Shown: piece after piece, positions 3,402-47,875 of the stretch | Numbering within the stretch: position 1 is the stretch's first letter | How the letters are laid out: each line of letters opens with the position of its first letter | Program-made: the position numbers and the translations under genes | IMG/VR virus record: IMGVR_UViG_3300027872_000001 | From: a virus | Length of the DNA: 64,000 nucleotides | Direction: 5' to 3' (one strand) | Notes under the pieces: generated by a model | Database searches by the model: none | Seen by the model: the letters and a program-made list of their open reading frames with translations, nothing else | What the model was told of the DNA's origin: nothing

Positions 3402-3412
3402 CTAACATTCCC
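3402..3412 (-). promoter_or_regulatory. GGGGARTGTTAG motif copy
   Basis: Plus strand ctaacattccc. Its TAG is the stop codon of 3402..3710. 25 nt upstream of the ATG at 3376. Confidence 0.7.
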
Positions 3413-3710
3413 CTCTCCCCTTCGACTCAATCTGAATCCGGATCACTTCTACAGCGCACTTGGAGCAAGCGACGACAAGATACTCATTGCCGTACTCAAA
3501 GCTGACGGATAGCCCTTCGTAGTCGTGGCAGCGGGCATGAAGGAACAGAGGGCCAGCGTGTTTGTGATCGCAGCCAGGGGATTGACAGCCCTGGGCAGCG
3601 GCGTTCTCCAGATCTTCCAAATAAGCGACTTTCACCCGTGTATTCCCATTTTTACCAACCAGGGAAAGCCAGCTTTTACCCATATTTGCCAGCTTTCCCC
3701 GCACAAACAC
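3402..3710 (-). CDS. hypothetical Cys/His-rich protein
   Basis: ORF track, 102 aa, ending GEC* inside the motif. The start is uncertain (alternative Met10). Confidence 0.5.
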   Translation of the reverse strand: MFVRGKLANMGKSWLSLVGKNGNTRVKVAYLEDLENAAAQGCQSPGCDHKHAGPLFLHARCHDYEGLSVSFEYGNEYLVVACSKCAVEVIRIQIESKGRGEC

Positions 3711-3768
3711 CCATTTTTACCCATATATGCCAACAATCCGCCGATTATCACAATAAAGTGATATTCCC

Positions 3769-4026
3769 CTAGAACGGCGGGTCCGGTTCATCCGGTTCCT
3801 CCTCGTCGACAGCTGGCCCCCCCTCGTAAACGACAATCCCTTCATCCAGGCTGTCGGCTATCCGCTCCAGCTGCAGGATCTGTTCCACCATCAACTGAGT
3901 GAAAGAGTCTGGGCCATCCTTGTCTACCAAGAGAGTCAATCGTTCTTTCAATTCCATAGCTTCCTCCGGTTTAATTTTTGAACGCCTGACAAACTCATCA
4001 ACATACCGTTGAATGCCGAGCTTCAT
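3769..4026 (-). CDS. hypothetical protein
   Basis: ORF 3769..4077 trimmed to the ATG at 4026 (MKLGIQ...), an ATGA overlap with 4023..4241. Confidence 0.5.
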   Translation of the reverse strand: MKLGIQRYVDEFVRRSKIKPEEAMELKERLTLLVDKDGPDSFTQLMVEQILQLERIADSLDEGIVVYEGGPAVDEEEPDEPDPPF

Positions 4027-4241
4027 GGGTCGATCACTTCGAGCTTGTCCGGATCCCCCGTCATTGGGCGACCCCACCCGTCATAGTAACCTTCCTTGGT
4101 GAAAAAATACTCCGTCCCGTTGGCGCATTTGATCTTGTCCAGGTGCTTCCCCTCCGTCACTTCCACTGGCAACTCCAGCCGAATTTTCTTGCACTTCCCA
4201 TCCTCATAGACCACCACCAGGAACATTTCAAATATCCCCAA
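4023..4241 (-). CDS. hypothetical protein
   Basis: ORF track, 72 aa. Confidence 0.5.
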   Translation of the reverse strand: MGIFEMFLVVVYEDGKCKKIRLELPVEVTEGKHLDKIKCANGTEYFFTKEGYYDGWGRPMTGDPDKLEVIDP

Positions 4242-4356
4242 TCCGCATTTTAATATCCGATTTCGGTGTTTTAATATCAGGTGAAGGACACCAAATCCCC
4301 GCGCCCGAGAGAACCAGCAGAAGGAACCACAAGAGCAGAGTGATGTTGATTCTCAT
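4228..4356 (-). CDS. small hydrophobic protein
   Basis: ORF 4228..4410 trimmed to the ATG at 4356 (MRINITLLLWFLLLVLSGAG...), an ATGA overlap with 4353..4589. Confidence 0.4.
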   Translation of the reverse strand: MRINITLLLWFLLLVLSGAGIWCPSPDIKTPKSDIKMRIGDI

Positions 4357-4589: not shown

Positions 4590-4780
4590 TCGTGCGGTCC
4601 TGTCGGGTTCTCCCTCTGCTCGTTGGCCCACTTCAGAAATGCGACCATTTCGCATTCCGAAGGAATCCCCCCGGTGTGTTCGATCCAGTCTGCCAGCAAT
4701 TCATCCAGCATCCGGTGTAGATACTTGTGTCGCTTTTTGTGGGATTCCAGATCTGTGACAGGTAAGTATTCGTGTTCCAT
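4586..4780 (-). CDS. hypothetical protein
   Basis: ORF track, 64 aa. TIR is GGGATAGGGATG. Confidence 0.55.
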   Translation of the reverse strand: MEHEYLPVTDLESHKKRHKYLHRMLDELLADWIEHTGGIPSECEMVAFLKWANEQRENPTGPHE

Positions 4781-4801
4781 CCCTATCCCAATGTTTCCGC
4801 T

Positions 4802-4812
4802 CTAACATTCCC
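4802..4812 (-). promoter_or_regulatory. GGGGARTGTTAG motif copy
   Basis: Plus strand ctaacattccc, 21 nt upstream of the ATG at 4780. Confidence 0.7.
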
Positions 4813-4936
4813 TGAGTAGGTCCCTCACTGAATCGCCCCGGCCCCGCCCACATTGAGGGGTATGGTTGGGGTTTAACCCGCGCGAGGCCCAGGGCGAACT
4901 TAAATCATCTGCGCTGCGTATGCTAACAATCCCCAA

Positions 4937-5185
4937 TCAAGAAACGTACTTCAGTTCCTCGAACTGCTCGAAGATCGCCCTCGCTATCTTCTCAGGCAGC
5001 TTCGATCCGTTGTCCAAAGTGAATTTCTCATCATGCGAGATCGACTGGCCCTGCACCGCTGCACAGTAAGCCGACCACGCTCCCTCGATCCGCGTCCGCG
5101 CTACCACCATCACGTTCGGTCCCAAGCTGTACCTCGCTATCACTGGCTTAAATTCGGAGCCTGTAACTTCACTCGTTTCAACCAT
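4937..5185 (-). CDS. hypothetical protein
   Basis: ORF track, 82 aa. SD GAAAGGAGTGAAAGA precedes the ATG. Confidence 0.6.
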   Translation of the reverse strand: MVETSEVTGSEFKPVIARYSLGPNVMVVARTRIEGAWSAYCAAVQGQSISHDEKFTLDNGSKLPEKIARAIFEQFEELKYVS

Positions 5186-5215: not shown

Positions 5216-5277
5216 CTAACATTTCCCCGGAAGCCTACTGCCTAACATTCCCCGCATGACAAACAACTAACATTCCC
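5216..5277 (-). promoter_or_regulatory. tandem array of 3 motif copies at the head of the leftward unit
   Basis: ctaacatttccc (5216, variant), ctaacattccc (5242) and ctaacattccc (5267), spaced 25-26 nt. No convincing gene lies upstream on this strand. Confidence 0.7.
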
Positions 5278-5607
5278 TTGATTAAATAACCGCCCTGGCC
5301 GATCCTTTCGGAACACCCCATTGTCAAAGACCAAGGAGCGATCCACGACCAGGGCGAAAAAGAGATGTTCTTATGACTCGCGCAGTTTCCCTTTCAGGCT
5401 CGGAGTCAAGCACACACCCCAGGAAGCGCAGAAAGAGGATAACACGTCCAGGTGTGTATGTGTAGGTCAAAGCGGAGAGAAAAAAAATAAAATTACTGAT
5501 ACGCGGTTACAGGGTAAGCATAGAGCATGGAGTTAGGGACTCCTGCTCCGCTGGAGGATTCCGAGGATTCGGACCCCTTCCTTACTCCCTTCCTTCCTTC
5601 TTTCTTC

Positions 5608-5675
5608 GGTCTGGTCTGGTCGGCCTGGTCTGGGTGGTGGTGGTCTGGTCTGGCTGGTCTGGTCTGGTGGACTGG
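5608..5675. repeat. imperfect GGTCT(G) pentamer/hexamer tandem tract
   Basis: ggtctggtctggtcggcctggtctgggtggtggtggtctggtctggctggtctggtctggtggactgg, preceded by a polypyrimidine run ccttccttccttctttcttc. Confidence 0.85.
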
Positions 5676-5820
5676 CCGATGGTGAGCCGCCGACAAATAT
5701 GCTCCCCGCGTCACCGGCCAGTCCGTTTCGTTTGAGCGTGAACCATCCTATACTATCCCCTTGCCTACTTCGAGTAAACGCTGTCACGGCCATCCTCGTC
5801 GCATCTATTCGTGAGATCGG

Positions 5821-5848
5821 TGTCCCGTAGACTCCTGACTACGGGACA
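5821..5848. other. perfect 10-bp-stem hairpin in the divergent control region
   Basis: tgtcccgtag (5821..5830) pairs with ctacgggaca (5839..5848). The loop is actcctga. Confidence 0.75.
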
Positions 5849-5955
5849 GGCCAATTCGAGGATTTGACCGCTGGTTCCACTGGCTTGTGGCCTGCACATT
5901 CTCAAGGGTTTGCGGGACACCATCGAGCGAAATCGAGCGGCCAGTCATTTGGACG

Positions 5956-5985
5956 TTGACCATGGTCATACGATCATGGTAATAT
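5956..5985 (+). promoter_or_regulatory. sigma70-like promoter for the rightward block
   Basis: TTGACC (5956..5961), 18 nt spacer, TAATAT (5980..5985), about 25 nt upstream of the ATG at 6010. Confidence 0.55.
5962..5981 (+). repeat. 20-nt repeat ATGGTCATACGATCATGGTA (copy 1; promoter spacer or operator)
   Basis: An identical 20-mer recurs at 10377..10396. It contains CATGGT-N8-CATGGT. Confidence 0.85.
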
Positions 5986-6009
5986 GAATATAAGAAAGGA
6001 TAGGGAAAT

Positions 6010-6192: not shown

Positions 6193-6269
6193 TTCCCCCC
6201 CCCTGGTTCGTGTTTTCCTCTACCTGGACACGGACCCGGCTGCAAGGTAGGGAGAAGGATAGGGAATCC

Positions 6270-9010: not shown

Positions 9011-9055
9011 GGAGTAGCCAAATGGCGGTAGACCGCCGGAAAGGATAGGGAAACC

Positions 9056-19357: not shown

Positions 19358-19587
19358 TTGATTTTATAGTGGAAATCCACGATCAATATGGTGCTTCGCA
19401 TATTCTTGGTGTGATCGGTGTCGGGCTTTACGTCACCGCTTTAATACTGAGGCCTTTAGTGGTGCGCTACTGGCCCGACGCTAAAGAAAAGTTTGTTGAC
19501 CCCTGCCCGTTCGCGGACCCGCGAGGAAGTTCTGCCCAGGTCAGAGCTTGGGAGAAATTAGAAGAGAATGAAAAAACACGCCATTAA
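19354..19587 (+). CDS. small membrane protein
   Basis: GTG at 19354 (GTGA overlap, SD GAGGAGGAAGA). TM segment ILGVIGVGLYVTALIL. Confidence 0.45.
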   Translation: MIDFIVEIHDQYGASHILGVIGVGLYVTALILRPLVVRYWPDAKEKFVDPCPFADPRGSSAQVRAWEKLEENEKTRH

Positions 19588-19840
19588 GCCTGGATCGAAC
19601 GGGAAGGAAGGTTGGTGGTATGAGATCATGCCACTGACCTTCGACCGTGCCAGGATCGTCCTGACCGATGGGTACTCTGTTGACGATGGATGGTGATACG
19701 ACTCACCAGGGTTGGCAGTTGTCGGCCTTGCGACATTTGATCCTAAGACGATGGATGAACCGGAAGGATGGATGCGAAACCTGTCAACGGCTCGACGCCG
19801 GCCAGGGGGTGACCCCAAAAAGGAATATATTCGACGATGA
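19568..19840 (+). pseudogene. 90-codon reading frame interrupted by a single in-frame TGA (19694..19696)
   Basis: MKKHAIKPGSNGKEGWWYEIMPLTFDRARIVLTDGYSVDDGW-TGA-YDSPGLAVVGLATFDPKTMDEPEGWMRNLSTARRRPGGDPKKEYIRR. Both halves are stop-free in the same frame. Confidence 0.35.
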
Positions 19841-20367: not shown

Positions 20368-20739
20368 TCAAAAGTTCACCTTTTTTTCGTGATTGTCATT
20401 GAAGTAGTTCTCCAACGGCCAAAGACGATAGTGGACGAGGCCGCGGCCGAGTTTGATCCGGATCCGGTCCTTCATGTGCCGATAGCCATCCCATGAGAGC
20501 TGTAGCGTCTGACGACAATCGGTTGGTTTTATCCTGTACTTGGCTCTCATTTTGAATAACTTGAGCTCTACGGGAGTGAGGACCCGGGAAGCGACGATAT
20601 CGAAGTCAACAATGAAGTCTTGGAGAAGTGGGTCATCGGCCAGTAAGCGAGGGTCTGCCTCACCCAAGACTTCATACTGAATGAAGCACTCAGTAAAGAT
20701 GTGAGAGGCGGCGGCGTTAGTAACTCTAAGAGGTTTCAA
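20368..20739 (-). CDS. sigma-70 region-4-like HTH protein (tentative)
   Basis: LTPVELKLFKMRAKYRIKPTDCRQTLQLSWDGYRHMKDRIRIKL follows the region 4.2 pattern L-s/t-p-x-E-x-x-h-F...h-S-x-x-x-h-x-x-x-h-x-R-h-x-x-K-L. Confidence 0.4.
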   Translation of the reverse strand: MKPLRVTNAAASHIFTECFIQYEVLGEADPRLLADDPLLQDFIVDFDIVASRVLTPVELKLFKMRAKYRIKPTDCRQTLQLSWDGYRHMKDRIRIKLGRGLVHYRLWPLENYFNDNHEKKVNF

Positions 20740-21550: not shown

Positions 21551-21728
21551 CTAACATTCCCGAGGAGATCCAGTACCTAACACTCTCCCTCTGTTGTGTG
21601 AAAGATCCCACTAACATTCCCTGTACTGAAGCCCCTATCTAACACTCCCAGGGAACACCGTTCTAACATTCCCCATCCCTCCATCCCTCATCAATCTGGC
21701 TCATAATAGGGACGCTGCTAACACTCCC
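21551..21728 (-). promoter_or_regulatory. array of 6 motif copies
   Basis: ctaaca[ct]tccc at 21551, 21611, 21639, 21663 and 21718, plus the variant ctaacactctccc at 21577. The 21718 copy supplies the stop of 21718..21930. Confidence 0.7.
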
Positions 21729-21930
21729 CTGGTACCGACTCTTTCCCACCGTCGCAGCAGGACTCGAAGTAGCCGCATTTGCGACAGAGCTGCTTGTCAC
21801 GGACGTGTACGGTCTTCGCTCCGCAGAGCGGGCAGCAGTAGTACGCTTTAAGGCTCATTCCCTCGGGCCAGGCCAGAGGCTCCGGTCCCAGGACCCAATC
21901 GTTGTCGAGCGGTCTATCTCCGTCAGTCAC
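21718..21930 (-). CDS. small zinc-ribbon protein
   Basis: ORF 21718..22032 trimmed to the GTG at 21930, just before the stop of the upstream gene. CCPLCG...CRKCG. Ends GEC*. Confidence 0.45.
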   Translation of the reverse strand: MTDGDRPLDNDWVLGPEPLAWPEGMSLKAYYCCPLCGAKTVHVRDKQLCRKCGYFESCCDGGKESVPGEC

Positions 21931-22195
21931 TCTCTCTCTCTCCCCTTTGCAGGTGTTCGTAGATATACATTCTGAGTCGGAGCCGTGATTCGTCCTTGGC
22001 GTGACCCAGGACACTACTCTCGTTCTCCTCATCCCCGACGTAACAACGAGCCTGAATGTAGAGCTTCCTATCTTCGTGGAAGCCCACCCAGGACCCTTCC
22101 TTCAGCGGCCAGGACGAACATAGTTTCCAACCCGTCCACTCGACCTTCCAACCTTCCTCCAGGTGAGCTGTTGCCTTCAATGCTCGTTCACTCAT
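21923..22195 (-). CDS. hypothetical protein
   Basis: ORF track, 90 aa. The ATG lies exactly 12 nt downstream of the motif at 22208, with no SD. Confidence 0.55.
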   Translation of the reverse strand: MSERALKATAHLEEGWKVEWTGWKLCSSWPLKEGSWVGFHEDRKLYIQARCYVGDEENESSVLGHAKDESRLRLRMYIYEHLQRGERESD

Positions 22196-22462: not shown

Positions 22463-22672
22463 CTACCCCAACACTCCCTCTTTGGTGTCGATAATGACGG
22501 GCGAGTGCCACAGTGGATGCTCTTTGACGATTCTCATGGGGGTCCCCCCGCTGCGCAGCGAAGACCATCCGACGACAAAATCCTTACCTTCACCGTCGAT
22601 GGCTCTGATCATGTAGCGCATTTCGTCCCGGTAGAGCAGTTTTTTGAACCATTGAGTCCACTTGTTATCCAT
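22463..22672 (-). CDS. hypothetical protein
   Basis: ORF 22463..22699 trimmed to the ATG at 22672 (MDNKW...), after AGAGGG. An alternative GTG at 22699 lies 12 nt after the motif at 22712. Confidence 0.5.
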   Translation of the reverse strand: MDNKWTQWFKKLLYRDEMRYMIRAIDGEGKDFVVGWSSLRSGGTPMRIVKEHPLWHSPVIIDTKEGVLG

Positions 22673-22892
22673 CCCTCTGCGGTCCTTTTCCTTCCCCACA
22701 CTGACGCTTTGCTAACACTCCCTCGTCCGGATCGACGCCCATTGCCCTCATCTCTGCGCGGATGGGCCGTAGATCAATCGTTCTTCGCCATTTTCGGCAC
22801 TTGCAGCAGAACTCCTCGTAGCCTTCCCTGGATGCGTGGACCTGGGTGATCTGGTGATTGCTGTTCTGTGGGCAGACTCCTAAGCTCATCAT
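22665..22892 (-). CDS. small Cys-rich protein
   Basis: ORF track, 75 aa. The ATGATG start lies 4 nt after the motif at 22897. Confidence 0.5.
   Translation of the reverse strand: MMSLGVCPQNSNHQITQVHASREGYEEFCCKCRKWRRTIDLRPIRAEMRAMGVDPDEGVLAKRQCGEGKGPQRDG
22712..22722 (-). promoter_or_regulatory. GGGGARTGTTAG motif copy
   Basis: Plus strand ctaacactccc. Lies inside the 3' part of ORF 22665..22892. Confidence 0.6.
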
Positions 22893-22896: not shown

Positions 22897-22907
22897 CTAA
22901 CACTCCC
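22897..22907 (-). promoter_or_regulatory. GGGGARTGTTAG motif copy
   Basis: Plus strand ctaacactccc. Its TAG is the stop of 22897..23352 (REC*). Confidence 0.65.
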
Positions 22908-23352
22908 TGACCGGCCTCGTCTTGGCGATAATCTCGTAGGTCACCTGGTCGATATCTGAAAGGTCCTCGCGGTAGGACCAGGCATCGGACTGGACGCTTA
23001 CCCCTATTCCGGATTTCTCTCTGTTCCTGAGTACGACATTCCAGACGGGATCGGGTGTGTCGACATCTAACATTCCCACGAGCTTCTCGGTAGTCAATCC
23101 CGCGTCCTCTGCTGCTGCTCTGGCAAGAGCCTTTTTCACTAGCCTTCGCTCGTTTCTTTCAGCTTCGTCCCACTCACACTTGTTGCATGGCCACACGGCC
23201 TCGTCCGCGATCTTCTCCAGGATCAGTTGAGGAGCCGCTGGCTTCCTTCTGCGCTTGTATTCAGTGATGTGGTCGTCACACTCAGCGAAGGGTTGGCCGT
23301 GCTCATTCTTGTCGAGGTTGAAGAAGCGGTAGAGCCTGACGTTCTTACTCAT
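22897..23352 (-). CDS. hypothetical protein
   Basis: ORF track, 151 aa. Contains an internal exact motif copy at 23067. Confidence 0.65.
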   Translation of the reverse strand: MSKNVRLYRFFNLDKNEHGQPFAECDDHITEYKRRRKPAAPQLILEKIADEAVWPCNKCEWDEAERNERRLVKKALARAAAEDAGLTTEKLVGMLDVDTPDPVWNVVLRNREKSGIGVSVQSDAWSYREDLSDIDQVTYEIIAKTRPVREC

Positions 23353-25325: not shown

Positions 25326-25391
25326 CTAACATTCCCTCTGGCGGCGATCACGAGCTAACATTCCCGCAAAGAGCTCCCCACTAACACTCCC
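25326..25391 (-). promoter_or_regulatory. tandem array of 3 motif copies
   Basis: Exact copies at 25326, 25355 and 25381, spaced 29 and 26 nt. The 25381 copy gives the GEC* stop. 24 nt to the ATG at 25301. Confidence 0.7.
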
Positions 25392-25596
25392 CCTCCTTCC
25401 AGTTGATCCCCTTCATTTCCTCAAGCTGGCGGATCTTGGTGTCGTCACGCTTGATCCGCTCGAGAAGGCTCTGGATCTCCTGCAACATGGCCCCCTGAGA
25501 GGCTGAGGGCTTCAACTTCCATCCCCGCTCGACCTTCAATTCCATCTTGGCTACTTCCATGTTGTCCGCTGGCTTCGGTAACTTCGGCCGTTTCAT
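25381..25596 (-). CDS. hypothetical protein
   Basis: ORF track, 71 aa. SD GGGAGACACT precedes the ATG. Confidence 0.5.
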   Translation of the reverse strand: MKRPKLPKPADNMEVAKMELKVERGWKLKPSASQGAMLQEIQSLLERIKRDDTKIRQLEEMKGINWKEGEC

Positions 25597-25775: not shown

Positions 25776-26048
25776 TTACGGTGCTGGACCCACTTCGGTC
25801 TCCAAAGCCACTTCTTCTTCCTCAATTATTTCGGTTTCAATCTCCCGAGAAAAGGTTTCCAGTTGAGGCAGCACGACTGAATTAAGGAAGCCCCAAATCT
25901 GTTCGGAGTGCATGAGATCGCCGTGGGCCTTCATGTTGATCTCCAGTCGGCCGAGGAAAGCGGTATCCTCTCCTTGGCGCAGCACGGTCCCATCGTCGTA
26001 CCTCGCATCAATAACCCCCCTGTCCATGACGATCACGATTTTTTTCAT
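25776..26048 (-). CDS. hypothetical protein
   Basis: ORF track, 90 aa. SD GAGGAAGGAACT precedes the ATG. Confidence 0.6.
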   Translation of the reverse strand: MKKIVIVMDRGVIDARYDDGTVLRQGEDTAFLGRLEINMKAHGDLMHSEQIWGFLNSVVLPQLETFSREIETEIIEEEEVALETEVGPAP

Positions 26049-26088: not shown

Positions 26089-26176
26089 CTAACACTCCCA
26101 ACCGGGCATGATGCCCTAACACTCCCCGTAGCTTCAATCTAACATTCCCCGATTCAAAATCAGTTCTAACCTTCCC
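26089..26176 (-). promoter_or_regulatory. tandem array of 4 motif copies
   Basis: Copies at 26089, 26116 and 26139 (exact) and 26166 (ctaaccttccc, stop of 26166..26465), spaced 27, 23 and 27 nt. Confidence 0.7.
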
Positions 26177-26465
26177 CTTCGGTCCTCTGCTCCCAGAGTT
26201 CCATGATGGTCACCTTGCCGTTGCACTGTTCCTTCAGTCCCTCAATAAATGTGGCGTAGCCAGCGTGACCATCAGCTTCGTACTTCTCTATACCCTCGTT
26301 CCACTCCTGGAGGGTCATCTGATAACCCACGGACCCACACTCCGGACAGCAGGGGATACCGTGACTGATTTCCTCACCCTCAACTGGTTCTGTGGCCGAC
26401 AGTTTCTCCCACTCGTCGGTCCAGTAGGTGCAGAATCCATACCAAATCTCTTGTTCGTCATTCAT
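26166..26465 (-). CDS. hypothetical zinc-ribbon protein
   Basis: ORF track, 99 aa. CCPECG. Confidence 0.6.
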   Translation of the reverse strand: MNDEQEIWYGFCTYWTDEWEKLSATEPVEGEEISHGIPCCPECGSVGYQMTLQEWNEGIEKYEADGHAGYATFIEGLKEQCNGKVTIMELWEQRTEGEG

Positions 26466-26695: not shown

Positions 26696-26787
26696 ATCAA
26701 TCCAAACCCCTTGAGAAAGAGTCCCAGGATGATTGTCCCCAAGACAGACAGTAGGATGAGATGGAACCAAATCCCCGTCCAAGTCAT
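26692..26787 (-). CDS. small hydrophobic peptide (31 aa)
   Basis: MTWTGIWFHLILLSVLGTIILGLFLKGFGLI, with ATGA overlaps at both ends. Below the ORF-track cutoff. Confidence 0.4.
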   Translation of the reverse strand: MTWTGIWFHLILLSVLGTIILGLFLKGFGLI

Positions 26788-27137
26788 AGCTTCTCCCTCT
26801 CCTTCTCCTCGATCTCAAGGATATCGAAAAAGGCCTTCTCCCATTCCGTGAAGCGTAAGGCCCGATCATCCAGGTAGACGTGCGCTGGTGGTTTCCCTCC
26901 GCTGTAGAAGCGGTCATAAGGGATATCGTGCTCCTTGAGCCACTTCGTAGCTTCTGCCTTCAGCTCCTTGTCGTTGCCGCGAGTGGTGAAGATAATGATC
27001 CTGTGGCCTAGCTCCTTCAGCTTCTTCATGGCATCTTGGCATCCAGGCATGGGTGGGTCGTATATCGTCCCATCGTGCCAACCCTTCGAGTACCTGTGAA
27101 TCACTCCATCGAAATCAACCGCGATCTTCAGCTTCAT
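26784..27137 (-). CDS. HAD-superfamily phosphatase / 5'(3')-nucleotidase-like
   Basis: MKLKIAVDFDGVIH gives the DxDG motif I, IIFTTR is motif II-like, and YLDDR is a late Asp motif. Confidence 0.6.
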   Translation of the reverse strand: MKLKIAVDFDGVIHRYSKGWHDGTIYDPPMPGCQDAMKKLKELGHRIIIFTTRGNDKELKAEATKWLKEHDIPYDRFYSGGKPPAHVYLDDRALRFTEWEKAFFDILEIEEKEREKL

Positions 27138-29051: not shown

Positions 29052-29447
29052 TTAAAATTCCACGTTCATTTCCACGTTCATTTCCGTTTCATTTACTTCC
29101 CACTTGGCAAGCAGATCGTCCTTTATCTGCCAAACAACAGCGTCCCTTCCGCTTCGGTTTGCCTTTCGTCGGCCACTATCAACCAACAAACCCATCAACA
29201 CCAGCTCTCTCCGTCGTGGCCGGTAAGTATTCTGTTGGGTGATGCGCCCAAGACTGTCGAACATTTGCTCATCGGTTGATCCTACGCTGCTGCAATTCTT
29301 GAAATACTCGAAAACCTCTCTCTGGATGGTTCCCACGTCCGGAAGGATCTTTTGGGCAGCGGCAATACTTGTGTCCACGTCCTCATGGGGGGGTTCCCCA
29401 TCGTACAAGTTGTAATCTCCGCTAAATAGATCACCTTGGTCAGTCAT
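29052..29447 (-). CDS. winged-helix DNA-binding protein (tentative)
   Basis: 131 aa. GDLF N-terminus, then ...REVFEYFKN...GSTDEQMFDSLG...YRPRRRELVLMGLLVDSGRRKANRSGRDAVVW, which is wHTH-like. The C-terminus is encoded by a 12-nt tandem repeat (EMNVEMNVEF). Confidence 0.5.
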   Translation of the reverse strand: MTDQGDLFSGDYNLYDGEPPHEDVDTSIAAAQKILPDVGTIQREVFEYFKNCSSVGSTDEQMFDSLGRITQQNTYRPRRRELVLMGLLVDSGRRKANRSGRDAVVWQIKDDLLAKWEVNETEMNVEMNVEF

Positions 29448-30007: not shown

Positions 30008-30069
30008 CTAACACTCCCACCTACAAGTTATATCTAACAGTCCACCAACACGTTATATCTAACATTCCT
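30008..30069 (-). promoter_or_regulatory. tandem array of 3 motif copies
   Basis: ctaacactccc (30008), ctaacagtcca (30034) and ctaacattcct (30059, KEC* stop). The latter two share the extended GTTATATCTAACA. Confidence 0.6.
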
Positions 30070-30565
30070 TCTCATAAAAGAGAGTCTCGACGATCTGCCA
30101 GATCTCGGACATATCCCCGTTCTTCCACCCTTCTTCGCTGTCGGCGTACCGTTCCGAGATCTCCTGGATCTCCTCCATGGCTGAACGAACCTTGGTCGGC
30201 TCTGATAGTACCGTCCTAACACTCCCCAAATAGAACTTACCCGGATTCAGGGCGAACCTGGCCTTGCTCCCCTTGTCGGTGCGCATCCTCGTCCCACCCA
30301 GGAGGCCGTAGTTGGTTTTGTCGGCGTAAAACAGGAGAGCCTCGACCATGATGGCGTTCGCTGTCTCCGAATCCTCGTTGACGGTCCCTCCCAGAGCCAG
30401 CTTCTCGTTGAGCGCGTCGATCTCGTTGGCGCAGCAAGCGGAGCAGAGGCCGTGACGCTGATAGTGACGGAAGTGGGAGTTTTTGGGTTCGATGAGGGTG
30501 GTGGGACAGTTTTTACATGTCGATGAGGGTGCTAACATTCCCTTCTTTTTCTTCTTGCGTTTCAT
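30059..30565 (-). CDS. hypothetical protein
   Basis: ORF track, 168 aa. The ATG lies 12 nt after the motif at 30578. An alternative start is the ATG inside the internal motif copy at 30532. A second internal copy is at 30216. Confidence 0.6.
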   Translation of the reverse strand: MKRKKKKKGMLAPSSTCKNCPTTLIEPKNSHFRHYQRHGLCSACCANEIDALNEKLALGGTVNEDSETANAIMVEALLFYADKTNYGLLGGTRMRTDKGSKARFALNPGKFYLGSVRTVLSEPTKVRSAMEEIQEISERYADSEEGWKNGDMSEIWQIVETLFYEKEC

Positions 30566-30577: not shown

Positions 30578-30588
30578 CTAACAATCCC
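30578..30588 (-). promoter_or_regulatory. motif variant GGGGATTGTTAG
   Basis: Plus strand ctaacaatccc. Supplies the GDC* stop, and lies 12 nt upstream of the ATG at 30565. Confidence 0.6.
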
Positions 30589-30817
30589 CTCCGGTGGGGA
30601 CACCTGGCGCCCGATCCGGATTGATACCAAGGAGAGCCTCGACTTCCTGGAAGTTCTCGATGAATGTGGGTCCGTCGTAGGTATGGCCGTGAATGTGATC
30701 CATGACGATAGCTCCCTCTACGGCCTTGCTGATTGCTTGGGCCTTGTCGTAGAGCCGCTTCAAGGCTTCCTCCAACCTCTTGATGCGCTGCTCGTCCCCC
30801 AGGAAGGTCTTGTGCAT
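30578..30817 (-). CDS. hypothetical protein
   Basis: ORF 30578..30856 (TTG start) trimmed to the ATG at 30817, after GGAGTCTTGGAT. Confidence 0.5.
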   Translation of the reverse strand: MHKTFLGDEQRIKRLEEALKRLYDKAQAISKAVEGAIVMDHIHGHTYDGPTFIENFQEVEALLGINPDRAPGVPTGGDC

Positions 30818-30831
30818 ATCCAAGACTCCAC

Positions 30832-31302
30832 TCACGCGACCTTCGGCCTCCAGCAATTAACTGTCAATGCTGCTCCTCCATCGGTCTTGATCACACCGTC
30901 TTGGCATCTGATCCAGAGACTATCCATAATGAACGTACTGCCATCAATAGGTGTCTGAAACAACAGGTCGTGCTCCCTCCGGGATTCCGCAAGGGGCCTC
31001 ACCGAGACTTTGCACCCCACCGTATCCAAACACGCTGCTGAGATGCCCTTGATATAGGTAAACCCTGGCAACTTCGCTTCTCCACCACTCTGAGGAAAGC
31101 GGAGAGTAAACATTTGAAAATCCTCGGCCCCAATGGTGTAGAGCTTGCTCTCTGAATCGGTAAAAGCGGAAGTAACGATCTTGTCGTAGTCCGGATCCGG
31201 AAGCTCCGGAAGCTCCGGGCCTGGGTGTACGTCTAACAGTCCCCCGGCAGTAGCTGAGACTACAACGCCGGCAGTTACCTTGAAAAACTCTCTACGTTCC
31301 AT
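30832..31302 (-). CDS. exported protein with twin-arginine-like signal
   Basis: ORF 30832..31461 trimmed to the ATG at 31302. N-terminus is MERREFFKVTAGVVVSATAGG. Confidence 0.6.
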   Translation of the reverse strand: MERREFFKVTAGVVVSATAGGLLDVHPGPELPELPDPDYDKIVTSAFTDSESKLYTIGAEDFQMFTLRFPQSGGEAKLPGFTYIKGISAACLDTVGCKVSVRPLAESRREHDLLFQTPIDGSTFIMDSLWIRCQDGVIKTDGGAALTVNCWRPKVA

Positions 31303-31516
31303 TGGGCCACTCCCTGTAAAGAAAAGTGTCGTGGGTAACCTGTCGCTCGTAGTGGAAGGTGTGTTCGTTGACCTTGACGCTCGCATACGGGTCAGGGTCG
31401 GGTGCCATTGCTCCTCGCTCCGGGGCTGCGAAGCGGATGGTGTGCAGCGGGTGTCCACCACCCTCTATCGGTATCACCTTATGAAAACCCTTCAGGTCCG
31501 TGAGGATAGCGAACAT
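31292..31516 (-). CDS. hypothetical protein
   Basis: ORF track, 74 aa. 1-nt overlap with the upstream gene. Confidence 0.5.
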   Translation of the reverse strand: MFAILTDLKGFHKVIPIEGGGHPLHTIRFAAPERGAMAPDPDPYASVKVNEHTFHYERQVTHDTFLYREWPNGT

Positions 31517-31761: not shown

Positions 31762-31986
31762 CTAATGTCCATACCAAATGTCCCTGGCTAGACGCATGGA
31801 CATAGCTTCACGAGCAGCGACCATTTTAGCGTGGACGAGCTGGCTCATACCGATGCTCCTGGCCTTCATGATGAGGATGCGATCTCCCCAATAATCGCGT
31901 AGCCGTCGTCCTGGTATTCCTAACACTCCCTGCTTGGCAGCGACAATGGGCAACAGACTTGTGAGTAGAAACGATCTCCGATCCAT
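31762..31986 (-). CDS. small exported protein with twin-arginine-like signal
   Basis: MDRRSFLLTSLLPIVAA N-terminus. Contains an internal exact motif copy at 31920. Confidence 0.55.
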   Translation of the reverse strand: MDRRSFLLTSLLPIVAAKQGVLGIPGRRLRDYWGDRILIMKARSIGMSQLVHAKMVAAREAMSMRLARDIWYGH

Positions 31987-39032: not shown

Positions 39033-39533
39033 TTACCAAAAGACCAGCCAAATTATCAGGGCCAGCAGACCACCCGTTATATACATATAAATGTGGCCCC
39101 AGGTCCCGCTGCCCCGGACCCGGATCAGGTCGTAGTAAAAATCGACTTCGTCAAGACGGGCTATGCCCAGGCTGAATAGATTTTCATTCTTGAATCGCTT
39201 GGCGAACATCGGAACCGGGAGCCAGCCCCGGTACATCACCGCAGAGAGCATCGTGTACCCCGCCTTTGGAATAGGCAGAATATGGCCGTACAGCTTCAGG
39301 AACTCCTCGGCCCCACTGACGTTGTAGTGGTCCTTATGTCTGGGCTTGTTGAAGTGGCCGAACCTGTAGGCATCGGCCTCGGTCCACCCTGAATTGCCAA
39401 GCAGCAGCTTGGGCGGGAACGGCCAGTTCTTTCCGCACCTGGCGGTCCAGGCACGCTTCACCCATCGGAGATACCAGCGCCAATCGTCGTGTCTCTTTCC
39501 CTTCAGACCTTCCGGTAAACAATCGTCAGACAC
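39033..39533 (-). CDS. hypothetical protein with C-terminal TM anchor
   Basis: ORF track, 166 aa. C-terminal TM segment is ITGGLLALIIWLVFW. Confidence 0.6.
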   Translation of the reverse strand: MSDDCLPEGLKGKRHDDWRWYLRWVKRAWTARCGKNWPFPPKLLLGNSGWTEADAYRFGHFNKPRHKDHYNVSGAEEFLKLYGHILPIPKAGYTMLSAVMYRGWLPVPMFAKRFKNENLFSLGIARLDEVDFYYDLIRVRGSGTWGHIYMYITGGLLALIIWLVFW

Positions 39534-40134
39534 CCTTCACCACCTTCTTAAACGCACGAGCCGTTAAACCGTCTTCCTTGAGTACCCTGCTCAATGTTTC
39601 GCTCAATGGAAAGTCGCCATCAATCAAGGCCCCTGGGCGCAGTTTGCTCCGGTCAGATATGTGACCGTTGCCGACGTACTTGAACTCTGGCAGTTCCCAC
39701 TCCTCGATGTACTTGATGAGCCTGTGTAGGGCTTCGTCTTGGGCCTCCCACTTTTCATCCACTGTGGACTTGTCGGTGATCAGAGGGAAGTCTTCCTGGT
39801 AGGTGAGATCCATGACGTTGTTCATGTTGGATATTGGACCCATTGTGCCAGTGGTTGTTGCGTAAAAGGCAGGATGTTCCCTCACATAGAAGGCGTGTAG
39901 TCCACCCGAATACTCAAGCCCATCGACTGGCTCCGCGATCCACTGTCCCACATTGACGACTTGGCTGATGGTTTTCTTCCAGCCCGTCCAGTAGAAGTAG
40001 TAGTCACCGTGCTTCGTCTTGAGGGTGAAGCGGGTGATGAATTTGTCCGGCGAAGCTGCAACAGTTTTGCTGCCACTAACAGTCCCCACGGCAGCGGTCC
40101 CTAGCAAGGCCCCAAAGAAAGTTCTTCTATTCAT
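39526..40134 (-). CDS. exported protein with twin-arginine signal
   Basis: MNRRTFFGALLGTAAVGTVSG N-terminus. ATGA overlap. An internal motif variant ctaacagtccc is at 40075. Confidence 0.7.
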   Translation of the reverse strand: MNRRTFFGALLGTAAVGTVSGSKTVAASPDKFITRFTLKTKHGDYYFYWTGWKKTISQVVNVGQWIAEPVDGLEYSGGLHAFYVREHPAFYATTTGTMGPISNMNNVMDLTYQEDFPLITDKSTVDEKWEAQDEALHRLIKYIEEWELPEFKYVGNGHISDRSKLRPGALIDGDFPLSETLSRVLKEDGLTARAFKKVVKGV

Positions 40135-42389: not shown

Positions 42390-42412
42390 GATTAATGAGA
42401 CCTAACATTCCC
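42377..42412 (-). promoter_or_regulatory. two motif copies at the TnpB-like gene start
   Basis: ctaacattccc (42402, 12 nt upstream of the GTG at 42389) and ctaacaatccc (42377, codons 2-5). Confidence 0.65.
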
Positions 42413-44659: not shown

Positions 44660-44680
44660 TTCCCTATCCTTTCTTTTCGT

Positions 44681-44692
44681 CCTAACAATTCC
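44681..44692 (-). promoter_or_regulatory. motif variant GGGGAATTGTTAG
   Basis: Plus strand ctaacaattccc, 21 nt upstream of the ATG at 44659. Confidence 0.6.
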
Positions 44693-44737
44693 CCTGGGGA
44701 GTTATTCCCCATTAAAGAATTTTAACATAGAACCCTG

Positions 44738-44986: not shown

Positions 44987-45561
44987 ATGAGACTTGCTGC
45001 TTCCAGGGCTGCTCGTTGATAGACGGTGACGTGGTCAGCGTTGGGATCCTCGATGGCTTCACCTATCTTGGTGAGCACCAGGGCATCGGCCAGGTCGTCG
45101 GAGTCCAGGTCGATCTTCCACCGCTTGAGGACCTCCTTGGGAATCATACTCTTGCTCCCGGGACTACCCACGAAACGCTTCAAGGTGGTGGGTGAGACAA
45201 GAATGTAAGGCACGTCCATATCATTGAGGGTAAACCTTACGATTCCCCCGATCTCACAGAGGATGGACTTGCCGCGGCCTATGGCTCCAAAAGCGTAGTC
45301 CTCCAGGATTACTTCGTCGGCGTGGTCAGCGAAGAACCTTACCCTTTCAACGATGTGATTCCATTTCTCTTCTCTTGATGGTCCAGGTTTCTTTTTCGTC
45401 GGCCGAGGGAAATCAATGAGGAAAAAAGAGTAGCCTTTCTTATTCAGAACGCCTGGGTGAGACACGCTATCTATAGTGCCGGCGAATTGTTGCAGAGCAT
45501 CAGTGCGTATGCACAGCCCTGTGGAGTTGAGCGACAGGTCAATACCTAAGATGCTTTTCAC
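44983..45561 (-). CDS. RuvC-like Holliday junction resolvase
   Basis: MKSILGIDLSLNSTGLCI carries the first catalytic Asp, VILEDYAFGA the Glu, followed by ...KRFVGSPGSKSM...DDLADAL. Confidence 0.7.
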   Translation of the reverse strand: MKSILGIDLSLNSTGLCIRTDALQQFAGTIDSVSHPGVLNKKGYSFFLIDFPRPTKKKPGPSREEKWNHIVERVRFFADHADEVILEDYAFGAIGRGKSILCEIGGIVRFTLNDMDVPYILVSPTTLKRFVGSPGSKSMIPKEVLKRWKIDLDSDDLADALVLTKIGEAIEDPNADHVTVYQRAALEAASLI

Positions 45562-45964
45562 TGTCCATCACCTTTCTGAAGGGTCCGTAGAGATCGTCCG
45601 ACACCTTGAGCAGACGCTCAAAGATTCGTCTTACTGGCTTCTCCTTGATCCGTTTCTTGGGTCTGCAACCGAAAGGACAGTGCATCCTCTCGTCTTTGGT
45701 AGCACCGTACAGCTGGCAGAGGATCGGCCTGACCTCATGGATCGAGCAGAGCCCCTCCTTTAAGTAGGGACAGGTGAGAGAGTCCAGGTCCGTGGCTAAC
45801 AGTTCCCCCCGGTCCCGCTGCTGGAGCCAGTCCACGATGACGATCTGTTCCGCTTCGCTCCAGAAGACAGGACCGCAGGCTTCCTGGCACTTCTGCTTGC
45901 AATGGAAGTTCGGGATCTTCCTGGAGACCTGAGCGTAGAGATCCTTGGCGTCCCTGAGATTCAT
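45539..45964 (-). CDS. YkgJ/CxxCxxCC-type Fe-S/zinc cluster protein
   Basis: ORF 45539..46021 trimmed to the ATG at 45964 (ATGA overlap). CKQKCQEACG...CPYL..GLCSIHEVRPILCQ. Confidence 0.55.
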   Translation of the reverse strand: MNLRDAKDLYAQVSRKIPNFHCKQKCQEACGPVFWSEAEQIVIVDWLQQRDRGELLATDLDSLTCPYLKEGLCSIHEVRPILCQLYGATKDERMHCPFGCRPKKRIKEKPVRRIFERLLKVSDDLYGPFRKVMDSEKHLRY

Positions 45965-47826
45965 AGCTGTGTAACGCTGGAGACTCCTTCCTCGTTCTTC
46001 ACCATATAGAACTTGGCCCACTTCACCGGGGGCTTCTTGAACTCCTCGTCAGGGATCATGAGGCTCCAGAAGACGAAGCTCTGATCCAGCTTCGCTTCCT
46101 TGATCATATCTAGCATGACCATCCTAAAGGGTGGGGTCAGAAGCTCGGCGTTGTCCACACAGATGAAGTTGAATTTTGACCACTTCGCCAGGGCGATCTG
46201 TAGAGCCACACCCAAACGAAATCGTTCCGACCTGGACAAGCTGGCTACGGGTCGTGTCCTGGCCTTGATCAGCCAGGGGTCCACTTGGATATCTAGCTCA
46301 AAGCCGAACCGCTTCAGGGGTCCGTTGACCGCATCTTGGAAGGCGGTAACCTTGTCGTGGATCAACTGCAACCGTACCCCCTTGGGCCCGAAGAAATCGA
46401 CCAGAGATTCCAGGTGTCCGGACTTGATCTCCAGCTCCTTCATTTTCTCGGCTACTTGCTCGACCAGGTCCCGGCGCAGTTTCCATTGCTTCGCTTTTTC
46501 CAGGACACTCCGACCTACCTTGATTCTCTCCGCAAGTTCAGCCTTCCACTTCTCCAGCTTGACCACTTCCGGGTTCTCCGTGGTATCTTCCTGGGCCTCC
46601 AGCTCCTTCAGCTTTTCTTCCAGTTCTTTCAGCTTCTCCTTATTGCTGTTGTAACTCTTGGTCGTTTTCCGGAAGACTTCAGCCTCTGCTTCGACTTGAG
46701 AGGGAGAAGTGTAGTCAGCCTCTAGCTTCTCCATTTTCTCCTTGAGGTCATGGGCTTCCCCCTGGCGCGTTCTCTCCAGGTCTGTCTGTTCCACCACACC
46801 GGCCTGGATCTGCTTTACCTGGGCAGGGCATTTGAATGTGGCGCCAATGCAAGACCCGTCGAAGTGCTCCAAGAGAACCTTGGCCTGGGAGTGCTGTGTC
46901 ATGTGGGCTAGGGCGTAGGTGCGCTTGCGCTCCAGCTCGTCGTACTTCTTCTTGTGTGCTGCCTCATCCTTCTTTGCCTTGTTCAACTTGGCGGTCAGTG
47001 CCTTGGCTGCTTCTTTGGTGGGCTTCTGGAAGTTCTCGAACCAGTTGTTCAGGATGGTTATCTCACCCTGCAGCCGTTCGATTGCGTTGCGCTGAAACCC
47101 CTTGCCGTGTCCAATCAGCTCTGCTGTCTCTGCAATCGCTTTCTTCTCCTGATCCTCAATACCCCGCAGCTGTGCCTCGATCTTGTCGATGGGTGGTTCA
47201 TCACCCTCCGGAGGATCTGGGGCCTTGGTCTGCTTGATCTCCCGGTTCACATCGGTGCGTTCCCGGTACACCTTTTCGTAGGCAGCGTCCAGGACCGGGA
47301 TAGAATTGAACTTCAAGCCACTGACGAACTCTAGCGCAGCGGGATCCCCGTCGAACTTCTCGAGGATCGCTTCATGTTTGACCTCAACCCCAATGATATT
47401 CAGGATCGCTTCCTTCTGCGCCTTGGAATCCCACAGAAAGAAGTCCGTCGTGTTGAGGCACGCCGATATGATCTCCGGACGAAAGGGAAGCTCGACGGTC
47501 TCGCAGGACTCACCCTTTTCGTTGATCCATTCGATGTAACGATTTGTCAGGGCAACACCCCGCTCGGCTATGCCCCAATCCGTTTGCACTCGGACTACAA
47601 ATCTCTTGGCTTCGTCCAGGTCGTGAATCAGATCCCTCACGTTGTCGTTGCGCTTGCGATAGCTCTCGCACTGACCGACCAGGGCGAACTCGACGGCCTT
47701 CTTTATTGAAGACTTGCCGGCGTTCAACGCACCGAGGAACAAGTGTATTTTGGGAGTCTTCTTGAACTCCAAGAAGGTGCTCTTATGACTGGTGAAATTG
47801 TCCAACTTCAAGCTATTGATCTGCAT
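45961..47826 (-). CDS. Rad50/SbcC-like SMC-family ATPase
   Basis: N-terminal LKLDNFTSHKST...FLGALNAGKSSIKKAVEFAL (Walker A), a long coiled-coil middle, LSRSERFRL (signature-like) and FICVDNAELL (Walker B). Confidence 0.8.
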   Translation of the reverse strand: MQINSLKLDNFTSHKSTFLEFKKTPKIHLFLGALNAGKSSIKKAVEFALVGQCESYRKRNDNVRDLIHDLDEAKRFVVRVQTDWGIAERGVALTNRYIEWINEKGESCETVELPFRPEIISACLNTTDFFLWDSKAQKEAILNIIGVEVKHEAILEKFDGDPAALEFVSGLKFNSIPVLDAAYEKVYRERTDVNREIKQTKAPDPPEGDEPPIDKIEAQLRGIEDQEKKAIAETAELIGHGKGFQRNAIERLQGEITILNNWFENFQKPTKEAAKALTAKLNKAKKDEAAHKKKYDELERKRTYALAHMTQHSQAKVLLEHFDGSCIGATFKCPAQVKQIQAGVVEQTDLERTRQGEAHDLKEKMEKLEADYTSPSQVEAEAEVFRKTTKSYNSNKEKLKELEEKLKELEAQEDTTENPEVVKLEKWKAELAERIKVGRSVLEKAKQWKLRRDLVEQVAEKMKELEIKSGHLESLVDFFGPKGVRLQLIHDKVTAFQDAVNGPLKRFGFELDIQVDPWLIKARTRPVASLSRSERFRLGVALQIALAKWSKFNFICVDNAELLTPPFRMVMLDMIKEAKLDQSFVFWSLMIPDEEFKKPPVKWAKFYMVKNEEGVSSVTQL

Positions 47827-47864
47827 GGTTTTATCTTTCTATCTCCTGGTTTTAGTGTGAAGTC

Positions 47865-47875
47865 CTAACATTCCC
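47865..47875 (-). promoter_or_regulatory. GGGGARTGTTAG motif copy (rightmost in the window)
   Basis: Plus strand ctaacattccc, 38 nt upstream of the ATG at 47826, with SD CAGGAGATAG in between. Confidence 0.7.

Follow-up and report, generated by a model that had tools for sequence, protein, structure and literature searches.

What is the function of a short, oriented word that a phage repeats about 40 times at the boundaries of its genes? This question is raised by a stretch of 64,000 nucleotides (nt; hereafter the window) of the IMG/VR virus record IMGVR_UViG_3300027872_000001, in which the sequence GGGARTGTTAG (hereafter the motif) recurs between positions 3402 and 47875. The window originates from an uncultivated tailed phage. 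The signal is real and is conserved in the lineage; within the phage genome it occurs only in the non-structural early/replication part. Judging from sequence comparisons, the motif may be a cis-acting transcription signal that marks the 5' boundary of cassettes with early, replication and accessory genes, and the core of a single-element, phage-specific promoter is the function that we tentatively place ahead of the others weighed below.

On the plus strand of the window the motif, read as CTAACAYTCCC, is present in 29 exact copies, and no copy was found on the other strand, the expectation from dinucleotide shuffles being 0.03. A first-pass annotation, made from the sequence alone, had listed the same 29 sites and each of them was recovered. 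Another 11 copies differ from GGGARTGTTAG by one mismatch and all have the same orientation; copies with two mismatches are divided 13 to 13 between the strands, which is the chance level. Nine of the 13 “one-change” variants counted in that annotation are indeed such (5216, 21577, 26166, 30059, 30578, 31233, 32094, 40076 and 42377). The other four, at 27187 (GGGAATGgTTAG), 29463 (AGGACTGTTAG), 30034 and 44681 (GGGGAATtGTTAG), proved to be two-change or one-base-insertion variants, and two one-mismatch copies (4923-4933 and 22468-22478) had been overlooked.

A scan of IMG/VR for two motif copies lying 10-22 nt apart returned 52 loci. Those with a GC content of about 53% are relatives of the phage (67-97% nucleotide identity) and carry many copies each, on a single strand. 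Loci with a GC content of 0.38-0.40, which have two copies each, were left out, and L002, L003 and L033, with two copies near a terminase, were discarded as belonging to an unrelated phage. The window and about 26 loci gave a pooled set of 283 non-redundant copies. Their conserved block is 11-12 nt long, (g)GGGA[A 57%, G 30%, T 6%, C 5%]TGTTAG, and amounts to about 19 bits; between positions -35 and +55 no further conservation was detected in the pooled copies. The word is invariant at aligned junctions where the flanks have diverged, have been replaced or are broken by additional genes, so that the conservation at gene boundaries of related genomes, on which the first-pass annotation had made its case depend, is confirmed.

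The sense orientation holds for all 40 copies of the window and for essentially all of the 283 pooled ones. In three relatives (L038, L049 and L052) the gene of a ParB-like protein is inverted, and the motif is found on the sense strand of that very gene. There, an intact motif is followed by the spacer gacgaaaagaaaGGATAGGGA-ATG, which is the same spacer as that after the degenerate copy of the window. Since the inverted cassette carries its copy along, the motif goes with the gene downstream of it and with the direction in which that gene is transcribed, and not with a DNA strand; and as the motif and the spacer invert together with the gene, the motif is to be counted as part of the cassette downstream, on its 5' side.

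Between 19.9 and 48 kb and between 3.4 and 5.3 kb, the motif is present in most intergenic gaps (Table 1). The leftward zone encodes an SbcC-like protein, the ParB-like protein, tRNA-Met, a TnpB-like protein, a helicase, a Zn-finger/TOPRIM/P-loop primase-helicase, a radical-SAM protein and approximately 35 small orphan proteins (ORFans). The stretches at 6.0-19.6 kb (the rightward block), 740-3376 and 48-64 kb are free of the motif, as had been noted at first sight. Contig walking past the left edge of the window led to the large terminase, the portal and other late genes, and these structural genes, about 30 kb in total, contain 0 copies.

The window is near-identical to an 82.8-kb metagenome scaffold of ENA, but megablast produced 0 nucleotide matches among 50,697 phage records, and at the protein level the similarity to cultured phages is limited to a weak match with a Brevundimonas phage. 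When 185,579 species genomes were searched for paired copies of the motif, solely unrelated simple tandem repeats were returned (e.g. in a Tidjanibacter metagenome-assembled genome), with no prophage or host found, and the search for the motif string in the literature turned up nothing relevant. Distant homologues of the primase-helicase (35-42% identity) were rejected as relatives, because they reside in unrelated integrated elements without the motif.

At the gene boundaries the motif adopts a recurrent arrangement. Its final TAG is the stop codon of 7-8 open reading frames (ORFs) of the window, in agreement with the seven counted previously. Across the relatives, the TAG of the first copy of a junction is the stop of a confident ORF in 38 cases, and in 11 more the stop lies 0-3 nt upstream. 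The distance from the motif to the next start codon ranges from 0 to 50 nt. Most often it is 21-48 nt, with a clear Shine-Dalgarno (SD) sequence in between; in 16 cases the start follows after 0-6 nt, the GGGAG or GGGGA of the motif itself being placed at SD distance, and in 15 cases it is located 12-14 nt downstream, several of these starts having no SD. Copy 19907-19917 was considered as a terminator with no gene behind it, and this was rejected, as the small ORF 19558..19818 downstream of it is conserved as a protein in 7 relatives (64-87% amino acid identity).

The first-pass annotation had postulated a class of genes that start exactly 12 nt after the motif and are expressed from leaderless mRNAs, with four examples. 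The positions are correct in all four. ATG 22195 was verified as a start, the homology with its orthologues beginning exactly there, and in four relatives the orthologues have no motif and depend instead on translational coupling with the gene upstream. ATG 30565 is plausible, with orthologues of ORF 30059..30565 starting 12, 12, 5 and 3 nt from the motif. GTG 22699 and GTG 42389 are doubtful starts, as better ones with SD-like sequences lie downstream, and a second copy of the motif would fall inside the ORF that starts at GTG 42389. The leaderless rule is thus weakly supported at best: it dissolves into a loose cluster at 12-14 nt, next to orthologues at 3-12 nt and many starts at 0-6 nt.

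Many copies are arranged in rows. The spacing of 23-29 nt proposed for the window was reproduced, and in the relatives the start-to-start distances peak sharply at 24-28 nt, with a mode of 26. The rows comprise 2-8 copies, are rarely spaced under 24 nt, and have unrelated spacer sequences. Among close relatives the same junction carries 0-4 copies and the gene order is shuffled. For instance, at the junction 42377-42412 the window has two copies and L086, a relative of 98% identity, has one, which is why we regard the second copy as a recent gain. Taken together, the data show the motif to be an oriented cis-element that is read as a linear word, belongs to one class of genes, is dispensable at any one junction and is packed in units of about 25 bp. 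Between the two copies at 27187-27243 there is a palindrome, GTACAGACGTTTGTAC (27199-27232), which is conserved in L086, L087 and L040, the rest of that spacer being variable.

The distribution of ordinary promoters is of interest in this context. Sigma-70-like sites are at or below the chance level everywhere, and none is found on the sense strand in 19-33 kb. Two convincing intergenic sites of the sigma-70 type were recognized, both outside the motif zone (Table 1); since such sites lie only there, the host appears to use ordinary promoters, and the motif zone to be devoid of them. None of the sigma-70-like sites found is overlapped by a motif copy. No -10-like element occurs at a fixed spacing from the motif: across positions +11 to +18 of 172 copies TANNNT was encountered once. 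The lack of a TANNNT peak excludes a sigma-4 substitute that cooperates with a sigma-70 -10 element in the manner of MotA of phage T4, and a sigma-54-like geometry was also rejected, as the spacing does not fit. Downstream of the motif we observed a weak signal, in that position +12 is a pyrimidine in 62% of cases (about 43% expected) and purines dominate from +13.

If the motif is a promoter core, host RNA polymerase would first transcribe the motif-free blocks from sigma-70-type promoters, and a phage-encoded specificity factor would then direct transcription from the motif, with initiation within about 0-13 nt downstream of it. Three features of the sequence may bear on the position of the start site, i.e. 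the pyrimidine/purine switch at +12/+13, the SD-less starts at 12-14 nt and the lower bound of 24 nt on the spacing. One such unit would occupy approximately 24-26 bp, which would explain why the rows are packed at 24-28 nt and almost never closer. The rows would tune the output, the biggest of them firing into an origin-like region and the operon beyond it, and the 11-nt identity at the fronts of cassettes could provide microhomology for cassette shuffling and for the gain and loss of copies.

We favour the promoter because it explains how a 30-kb zone without host-type promoters can be expressed, because it fits the restriction to one class of genes, the size of the unit and the +12/+13 switch, and because it has the strongest precedents, namely gp36 of phage phiEco32, the late and middle promoters of T4, and the PeSL cassettes of T4-type phages. 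The suggestion of a promoter made in the first-pass annotation is in this respect reasonable, although unproven: the signal is conserved and direction-locked, and it is found where sigma-70-like promoters are lacking. Its two supporting arguments, the leaderless rule discussed above and the alleged absence of any gene upstream of the triple array at 5216-5277, did not survive. In relatives L018 and L051 an extra, motif-less ORF lies upstream of this array, and in the window itself the array is preceded by a conserved leader of 700 nt. This leader-like region (5290-5990, ~700 nt), located between the divergent promoters and the array, is 92% identical in L018/L051 and contains CCAGACCAGACC-type repeats, a poly-T tract and no convincing ORF.

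Among the closest precedents is phiEco32, in which the sigma factor gp36 recognizes single-element promoters of the sequence tAATGTAtA, with a start site 6-8 bp downstream (PMC8948821). As here, a short conserved word without a second element precedes one temporal class of genes; the two words share the AATGT core, and the phiEco32 one is read by a sigma-family protein of the phage together with the host core polymerase, for which a candidate analogue exists in the window. However, phiEco32 has about 6 copies and no rows, whereas the motif has ~40 copies and forms rows, gp36 possesses sigma region 2 but not region 4, whereas our candidate is region-4-like only, and no similarity was found between the two phages, which are unrelated. 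The PeSL elements resemble the motif in that small accessory ORFs each carry a repeated element at the 5' boundary, and in that close relatives differ at the repeats by cassettes that have been inserted, deleted, replaced or reordered; unlike the motif, for which neither a stem-loop nor a sigma-70 consensus was seen, they consist of a sigma-70 early promoter and a stem-loop (PMC2839356). MotA boxes of T4 require a sigma-70 -10 element at a fixed spacing, and there is none here. With the T7-like promoters the motif shares the conserved, oriented word before many genes, a unit of ~25 bp, close to the footprint of a T7 RNA polymerase promoter, and tandem copies before an AT-rich origin-like region, as at the primary origin of T7. 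It differs in that the conserved block is half as long, that an AT-rich initiation region and a conserved +1 are lacking, and that no gene of a single-subunit polymerase was found in ~95 kb of the phage.

As to the factor that would read such a promoter, about 90 proteins were compared with Pfam, PHROGs or NCBIfam, and a few more with PDB sequences. The only candidate is the product of ORF 20368..20739, a lineage-specific protein of 123 amino acids (aa) with 14 homologues at 58-96% identity, which had already been singled out in the first-pass annotation. It found no match in Pfam, NCBIfam or PDB sequences. Its AlphaFold (AF2) model has a predicted local distance difference test score (pLDDT) of 85, and most of the Foldseek matches in the PDB, the best-scoring ones included, are sigma-4 domains or whole sigma factors (SigD4, sigma-28, SigL, region 4 of sigma-E on -35 DNA and Thermus SigA). 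All of these have E values of at least 1.1, with match probabilities of 0.8-0.98, template modelling (TM) scores to the target of 0.66-0.84 and root-mean-square deviations of 1.2-2.7 A; in BFVD the matches include small phage “ECF sigma factor” entries (best E value 2e-3). The modelled fold resembles the helix-turn-helix (HTH) of sigma region 4, in keeping with the earlier choice of this ORF as a candidate factor. For the reading role the protein is a candidate only, and it could just as well bind the iterons in its neighbourhood. GGAAT is the usual core of the -35 elements of the extracytoplasmic function (ECF) type, which are bound by sigma-4 domains, and the motif contains GGAAT.

Several observations speak against a promoter. 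Rows of up to 8 copies at a spacing of 26 bp are unusual for promoters of multisubunit RNA polymerases, the footprint of which is ~75 bp. Of the nearest start codons, about one in four is 0-11 nt downstream of the motif, and transcripts beginning at about +13 could not serve these genes. No single copy is essential, given the turnover of copies at individual junctions. Neither an RNA polymerase nor sigma region 2-like or NusG-like proteins were detected in the ~95 kb of phage DNA scanned, most of the proteins being ORFans with respect to Pfam, PHROGs and NCBIfam. A protein with sigma-4 alone and without a -10 partner could be a DNA-binding regulator at least as readily as a sigma factor; to our knowledge, a sigma-4-like domain alone cannot melt DNA, and the sole candidate factor is of this kind. 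No gene of a T7-like single-subunit RNA polymerase was found in the window or in L082, L093 and L097. Two large ORFs had been considered as polymerases and were rejected: that of 3171 aa, examined as an N4-like virion RNA polymerase, encodes a DarB-like polyvalent protein, and that of 880 aa is the Zn-finger/TOPRIM/P-loop primase-helicase.

The largest row, of six copies in the window, is always located just upstream of a hyper-conserved non-coding region (20950-21520). This region is 97-100% identical in five genomes, in which the flanking genes are only 82-95% identical, and it contains CCTTTCACCA iterons, three in tandem and others dispersed and inverted, as well as a palindrome, TTGCACACATGTTGTGCAA, and an extended -10-like site, TGTATAAAT. 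The GC skew changes its sign near 21400. From these sequence features, the region is a candidate replication origin and control region, or else a candidate non-coding RNA locus. Between the first two copies of the row there is a mini-ORF of 13 codons (21688-21727, minus strand; ATG AGC CAG ... GAA TGT TAG), its ATG lying 13 nt past one motif and the TAG of the following motif closing it; in L012 an ORF long enough for the filter of at least 45 aa begins with the same ATG.

The layout of this row leads to the strongest competitor of the promoter, which we consider possible but on balance doubtful. The motif could be the asymmetric site of a small monomeric DNA-binding protein of the phage, the HTH product of 20368..20739 being the candidate, which would stop the host RNA polymerase, or gate it, during elongation across cassette boundaries, with an effect that depends on orientation, like the stoperators of mycobacteriophages. 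Long leftward units would start from few host-type promoters, and the distal regulator would then shut the early zone and repress its own operon through the largest array, the position of which upstream of the operon of the HTH protein is the usual layout of autoregulation. Close-packed rows in which the number of copies varies are easier to reconcile with a small binding protein than with RNA polymerase. The GGAAT core, to which sigma-4 domains bind, the lack of a -10 partner element and the array at 5.2 kb, which in L018/L051 follows an ORF instead of heading a unit, also speak for this reading. The stoperators of cluster A mycobacteriophages are asymmetric sites of ~13 bp recognized by repressors of the L5 gp71 type (PMC9283540). 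Their anatomy is similar to that of the motif: asymmetric sites of ~12-13 bp, present in dozens of copies (more than 20 in cluster A), located in short intergenic regions, often overlapping stop codons, oriented with transcription and presumably read by a small monomeric HTH protein.

On the other hand, stoperators of the L5 type cover both genome arms, whereas the motif is restricted to the early/replication zone, is missing from the structural genes and forms rows of 24-28 nt, the minimum of 24 nt exceeding the need of a 123-aa monomer. No copy overlaps an early or any sigma-70-like promoter, as an operator would, and the 30-kb zone would be left without recognizable promoters. No repressor homologue or structural match was found, the 50 best fold matches of the HTH candidate including no entry named as the solved cluster A repressor. 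Finally, we saw no sign of lysogeny: there is no prophage copy in the 185,579 species genomes, no large integrase was seen in the window, and the only recombinase of this kind is a small serine recombinase/invertase (17668-18315, plus strand).

A combined regulatory and cassette-exchange code, which joins elements of both explanations, seems to us unlikely. According to it, the word would be the docking site of a stand-alone sigma-4-like protein of the phage, which would govern the 30-kb zone through ~40 oriented sites, acting either as half of a split sigma factor that can do without a -10 element or, in a phage that is non-actinobacterial and apparently non-temperate, as a roadblock of the stoperator type, and the same 11 nt would double as a recombination joint for the shuffling of anti-defence and accessory cassettes.

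Still less probable is a signal that acts on RNA, i.e. a linear mRNA site for an RNA-binding protein or an endoribonuclease of phage or host, which would separate cistrons, set mRNA stability or aid translation starts, including those of the SD-less genes. Such a role is consistent with the occurrence of the motif on the sense strand only, in untranslated intergenic spacers, with the GGGAG/GGGGA at SD distance from the starts 0-6 nt downstream, and with the clustering of SD-less starts at 12-14 nt. The preference at the variable position (A > G > T > C) is also compatible with it, as the word always has NTG and the purines there could both pair with U. The RegB and RegA proteins of T4, whose targets are translation initiation regions in early mRNAs, are a precedent. 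However, the pairing profile around 209 copies is the same as that of controls with shuffled flanks, intrinsic terminators or hairpins are not enriched at the motif, Rfam gave no match, and complementarity to an antisense partner encoded in the window, with G:U pairs allowed, does not exceed the chance level once the motif copies themselves are set aside. Start codons follow the motif at 0-50 nt, a distance that varies among orthologues, and in bacteria and phages it is rare for a protein to read 11-12 nt of single-stranded RNA in a sequence-specific way. The internal NTG of the motif was also tried as a start codon and was rejected: the frames that it opens are short, unrelated and not coupled to downstream starts. 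The cleavage of RNA, which the first-pass annotation had offered as an alternative to the promoter, gains nothing from these analyses, there being no structural context and no antisense partner.

The motif might also be a loading or pause site resembling ops, i.e. a word on the non-template strand, accessible in the transcription bubble, that would recruit an anti-termination or processivity factor of the phage at each boundary of a very long operon, but we give this little credence. RfaH targets are long operons with poor SDs, and the ops element read by RfaH is 12 nt long, which is near the motif in size and logic, as this is a linear non-template word of 11-12 nt found in intergenic positions along units of ~30 kb without internal promoters or terminators. 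Nevertheless, ops occurs once or a few times per operon, as opposed to ~40 copies and rows of 8 here, and no NusG/RfaH-like protein was detected.

Equally improbable is a signal at the DNA level, be it strand-specific nick sites like those of T5, phiKMV and tf-like phages, crossover sites for cassette exchange, or centromere-like sites for ParB: although breakpoints in the homology between relatives show a 3.6-fold enrichment at distances of up to 12 nt from a motif copy, these points are also where genes have been reordered and copies gained or lost, a copy travels with the ParB-like gene, and a serine recombinase and a ParB-like protein (540 aa; 43037-44659, minus strand) are encoded in the window, such enrichment is what any gene boundary would show, the orientation follows the gene and not the DNA strand, nicks in rows 25 nt apart would be destabilizing, a signal for replication, packaging or partition would not avoid the rightward block and the late genes, and the word is non-palindromic, with neither an inverse partner as in attC nor flanking conservation. 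An attC-type core of integrons (GTTRRRY with an inverse core) was considered separately and rejected, as there are no reverse copies and no conserved flank or hairpin.

Phage-specific transcription words at gene boundaries form a known class, and no principle is overturned by another member of this familiar category; the sequence, the lineage and the row architecture of the present one are undescribed. The even rows, the row before the origin-like region and the link with cassette shuffling have not been described for the known examples. If the motif is a promoter or operator code, it would add to the few known cases of a phage controlling dozens of genes through one oriented word, and it would make the early and accessory, probably anti-defence, cassettes of a whole uncultivated lineage recognizable by a one-line rule and supply a compact, orthogonal regulatory part of 11-12 bp with a candidate reader of 123 aa.

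Table 1. Motif copies and associated features of the window, from right to left, followed by other elements (SD, Shine-Dalgarno sequence; HTH, helix-turn-helix).
Feature	Position	Strand	Context
Single exact copy	47865-47875	-	First of the motif zone; 6 nt after upstream stop; 38 nt before ATG 47826 (SbcC-like gene), SD between
Degenerate copy GGGGAATtGTTAG, one-base insertion	44682-44694	-	22 nt before start of ParB-like gene
Two copies 25 nt apart	42377-42412	-	Between tRNA-Met and TnpB-like gene
One-mismatch copy (GGGACTGTTAG)	40076-40086	-	Near 5' end of ORF 39526..40134
Two copies: 32094-32104 (one mismatch), 32017-32027 (exact)	32017-32104	-	166-nt gap before ORF 31762..31986
Exact copy	31920-31930	-	Inside or at start of weakly coding ORF 31762..31986
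One-mismatch copy	31233-31243	-	Gap between ORF 31292..31516 and gene starting near 31230
Two copies	30532-30588	-	TAG of 30578-30588 ends ORF 30578..30856, 12 nt before ATG 30565; 30532-30542 in frame within ORF 30059..30565
Exact copy	30216-30226	-	Within ORF 30059..30565 (coding, or internal cassette boundary)
Three-copy array: 30059-30069, 30034-30044 (degenerate), 30008-30018	30008-30069	-	Spacing 25-26 nt; TAG of 30059-30069 is stop of ORF 30059..30565; SD after last copy, directly before ATG 29994
Degenerate copy AGGACTGTTAG	29463-29473	-	Gap before ORF 29052..29447
Exact copy 27233-27243 and insertion variant GGGAATGgTTAG 27187-27199	27187-27243	-	Before ORF 26784..27137
Four-copy array	26089-26176	-	Spacing 27, 23, 27 nt; 0-4 copies in relatives; TAG of first copy is stop of ORF 26166..26465; ATG 26048 40 nt after last copy
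Single exact copy	25765-25775	-	Directly after stop of ORF 25776..26048
Three-copy array	25326-25391	-	Spacing 26, 29 nt; 0-3 copies in relatives; TAG of first copy ends ORF 25381..25596; SD and ATG 25301 24 nt after last copy
Exact copy	23067-23077	-	In frame within ORF 22897..23352; motif at corresponding boundary in L038
Exact copy	22897-22907	-	TAG is stop of ORF 22897..23352; ATG 22892 4 nt downstream, GGGAG at SD distance
Exact copy	22712-22722	-	Before ORF 22463..22699
One-mismatch copy (GGGAGTGTTGG)	22468-22478	-	5 nt before ATG 22462
Exact copy	22208-22218	-	12 nt before verified ATG 22195, no SD
Largest array, six copies	21551-21728	-	TAG of first copy ends ORF 21718..22032; 2-8 copies in relatives
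Exact copy, last of the leftward zone	19907-19917	-	Conserved in nearly all relatives; before small ORF 19558..19818
Three-copy array	5216-5277	-	Spacing 25, 26 nt; 30 nt before ATG 5185; 2-3 copies in relatives
Two copies: 4923-4933 (one mismatch), 4802-4812 (exact)	4802-4933	-	4923-4933 3 nt after stop of ORF 4937..5185; 4802-4812 21 nt before GGATAGGG-led start ATG 4780
Exact copy	3402-3412	-	TAG is stop of ORF 3402..3710; GGATAGGGA-led ATG 3376 25 nt downstream; last copy before the motif-free late region
Sigma-70-type promoter TTGACC, 18 nt, TG-n-TAATAT	5956-5985	+	Head of motif-free rightward block
Sigma-70-type promoter TTGCCA, 17 nt, TAGAAT	50854-50882	-	Intergenic, in motif-free 48-64 kb; GGAGG SD follows
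Repeat GGATAGGGA, exact copies	3377-3385, 4780-4788, 44661-44669	-	Motif zone
Repeat GGATAGGGA	5998-6006, 6257-6265, 9043-9051, 9330-9338, 10413-10421, 12132-12140	+	Rightward block
Protein with predicted sigma-4-like HTH fold, 123 aa	20368-20739	-	Just past origin-like region, near largest array
AT-rich non-coding region, ~550 nt	20950-21520		97-100% identity in five genomes

A second strand-locked repeat of the window, GGATAGGGA, has 9 exact copies, as against an expectation of 0.47, and all of them are oriented like the genes around them. In those copies whose context was read, it immediately precedes a start codon and behaves like the start-associated sequence (SAS) of cluster K phages, which combines an SD with a conserved spacer. 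SAS (GGGATAGGAGCCC; PMC3203893) is similar to the main motif in being strand-locked, restricted to the non-structural half of the genome and placed near gene starts, but it comprises the SD and is 3-7 bp away from the start codon; the main motif is found at 0-50 nt, mostly with a separate SD in between.

Some of the genes encoded in the window and its relatives deserve a mention. Among the small motif-flanked ORFs of a close relative there is a gene of Tad6, an anti-Thoeris protein (L087:7344-7799), which suggests that the cassette field at 20-32 kb is of an early accessory and anti-defence nature. The TnpB/Cas12f-like gene (PF07282; 41079-42389, minus strand) directly follows tRNA-Met and two motif copies and has no TnpA nearby; its homologues at E values of up to 1e-20 are solely proteins of 80-100% identity, presumably from the same phage lineage. 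An exact look-up of the TnpB protein (P0001) and of the polyvalent protein of 3171 aa returned no record. The latter (54442-63957, minus strand) resembles DarB of P1 and comprises a methyltransferase, a Strawberry-notch helicase (AAA_34 and Helicase_C_4) and LPD38, its residues 1-540, 1600-2760 and 2910-3171 having no recognizable domain. A protein of 444 aa with a Gp3-like recombination directionality factor domain is encoded at 49234-50568 (minus strand). Two tRNA genes of the phage, tRNA-Glu(CUC) at 589-662 and tRNA-Met(CAU) at 42529-42605, both lie on the minus strand, in the sense of the leftward genes.

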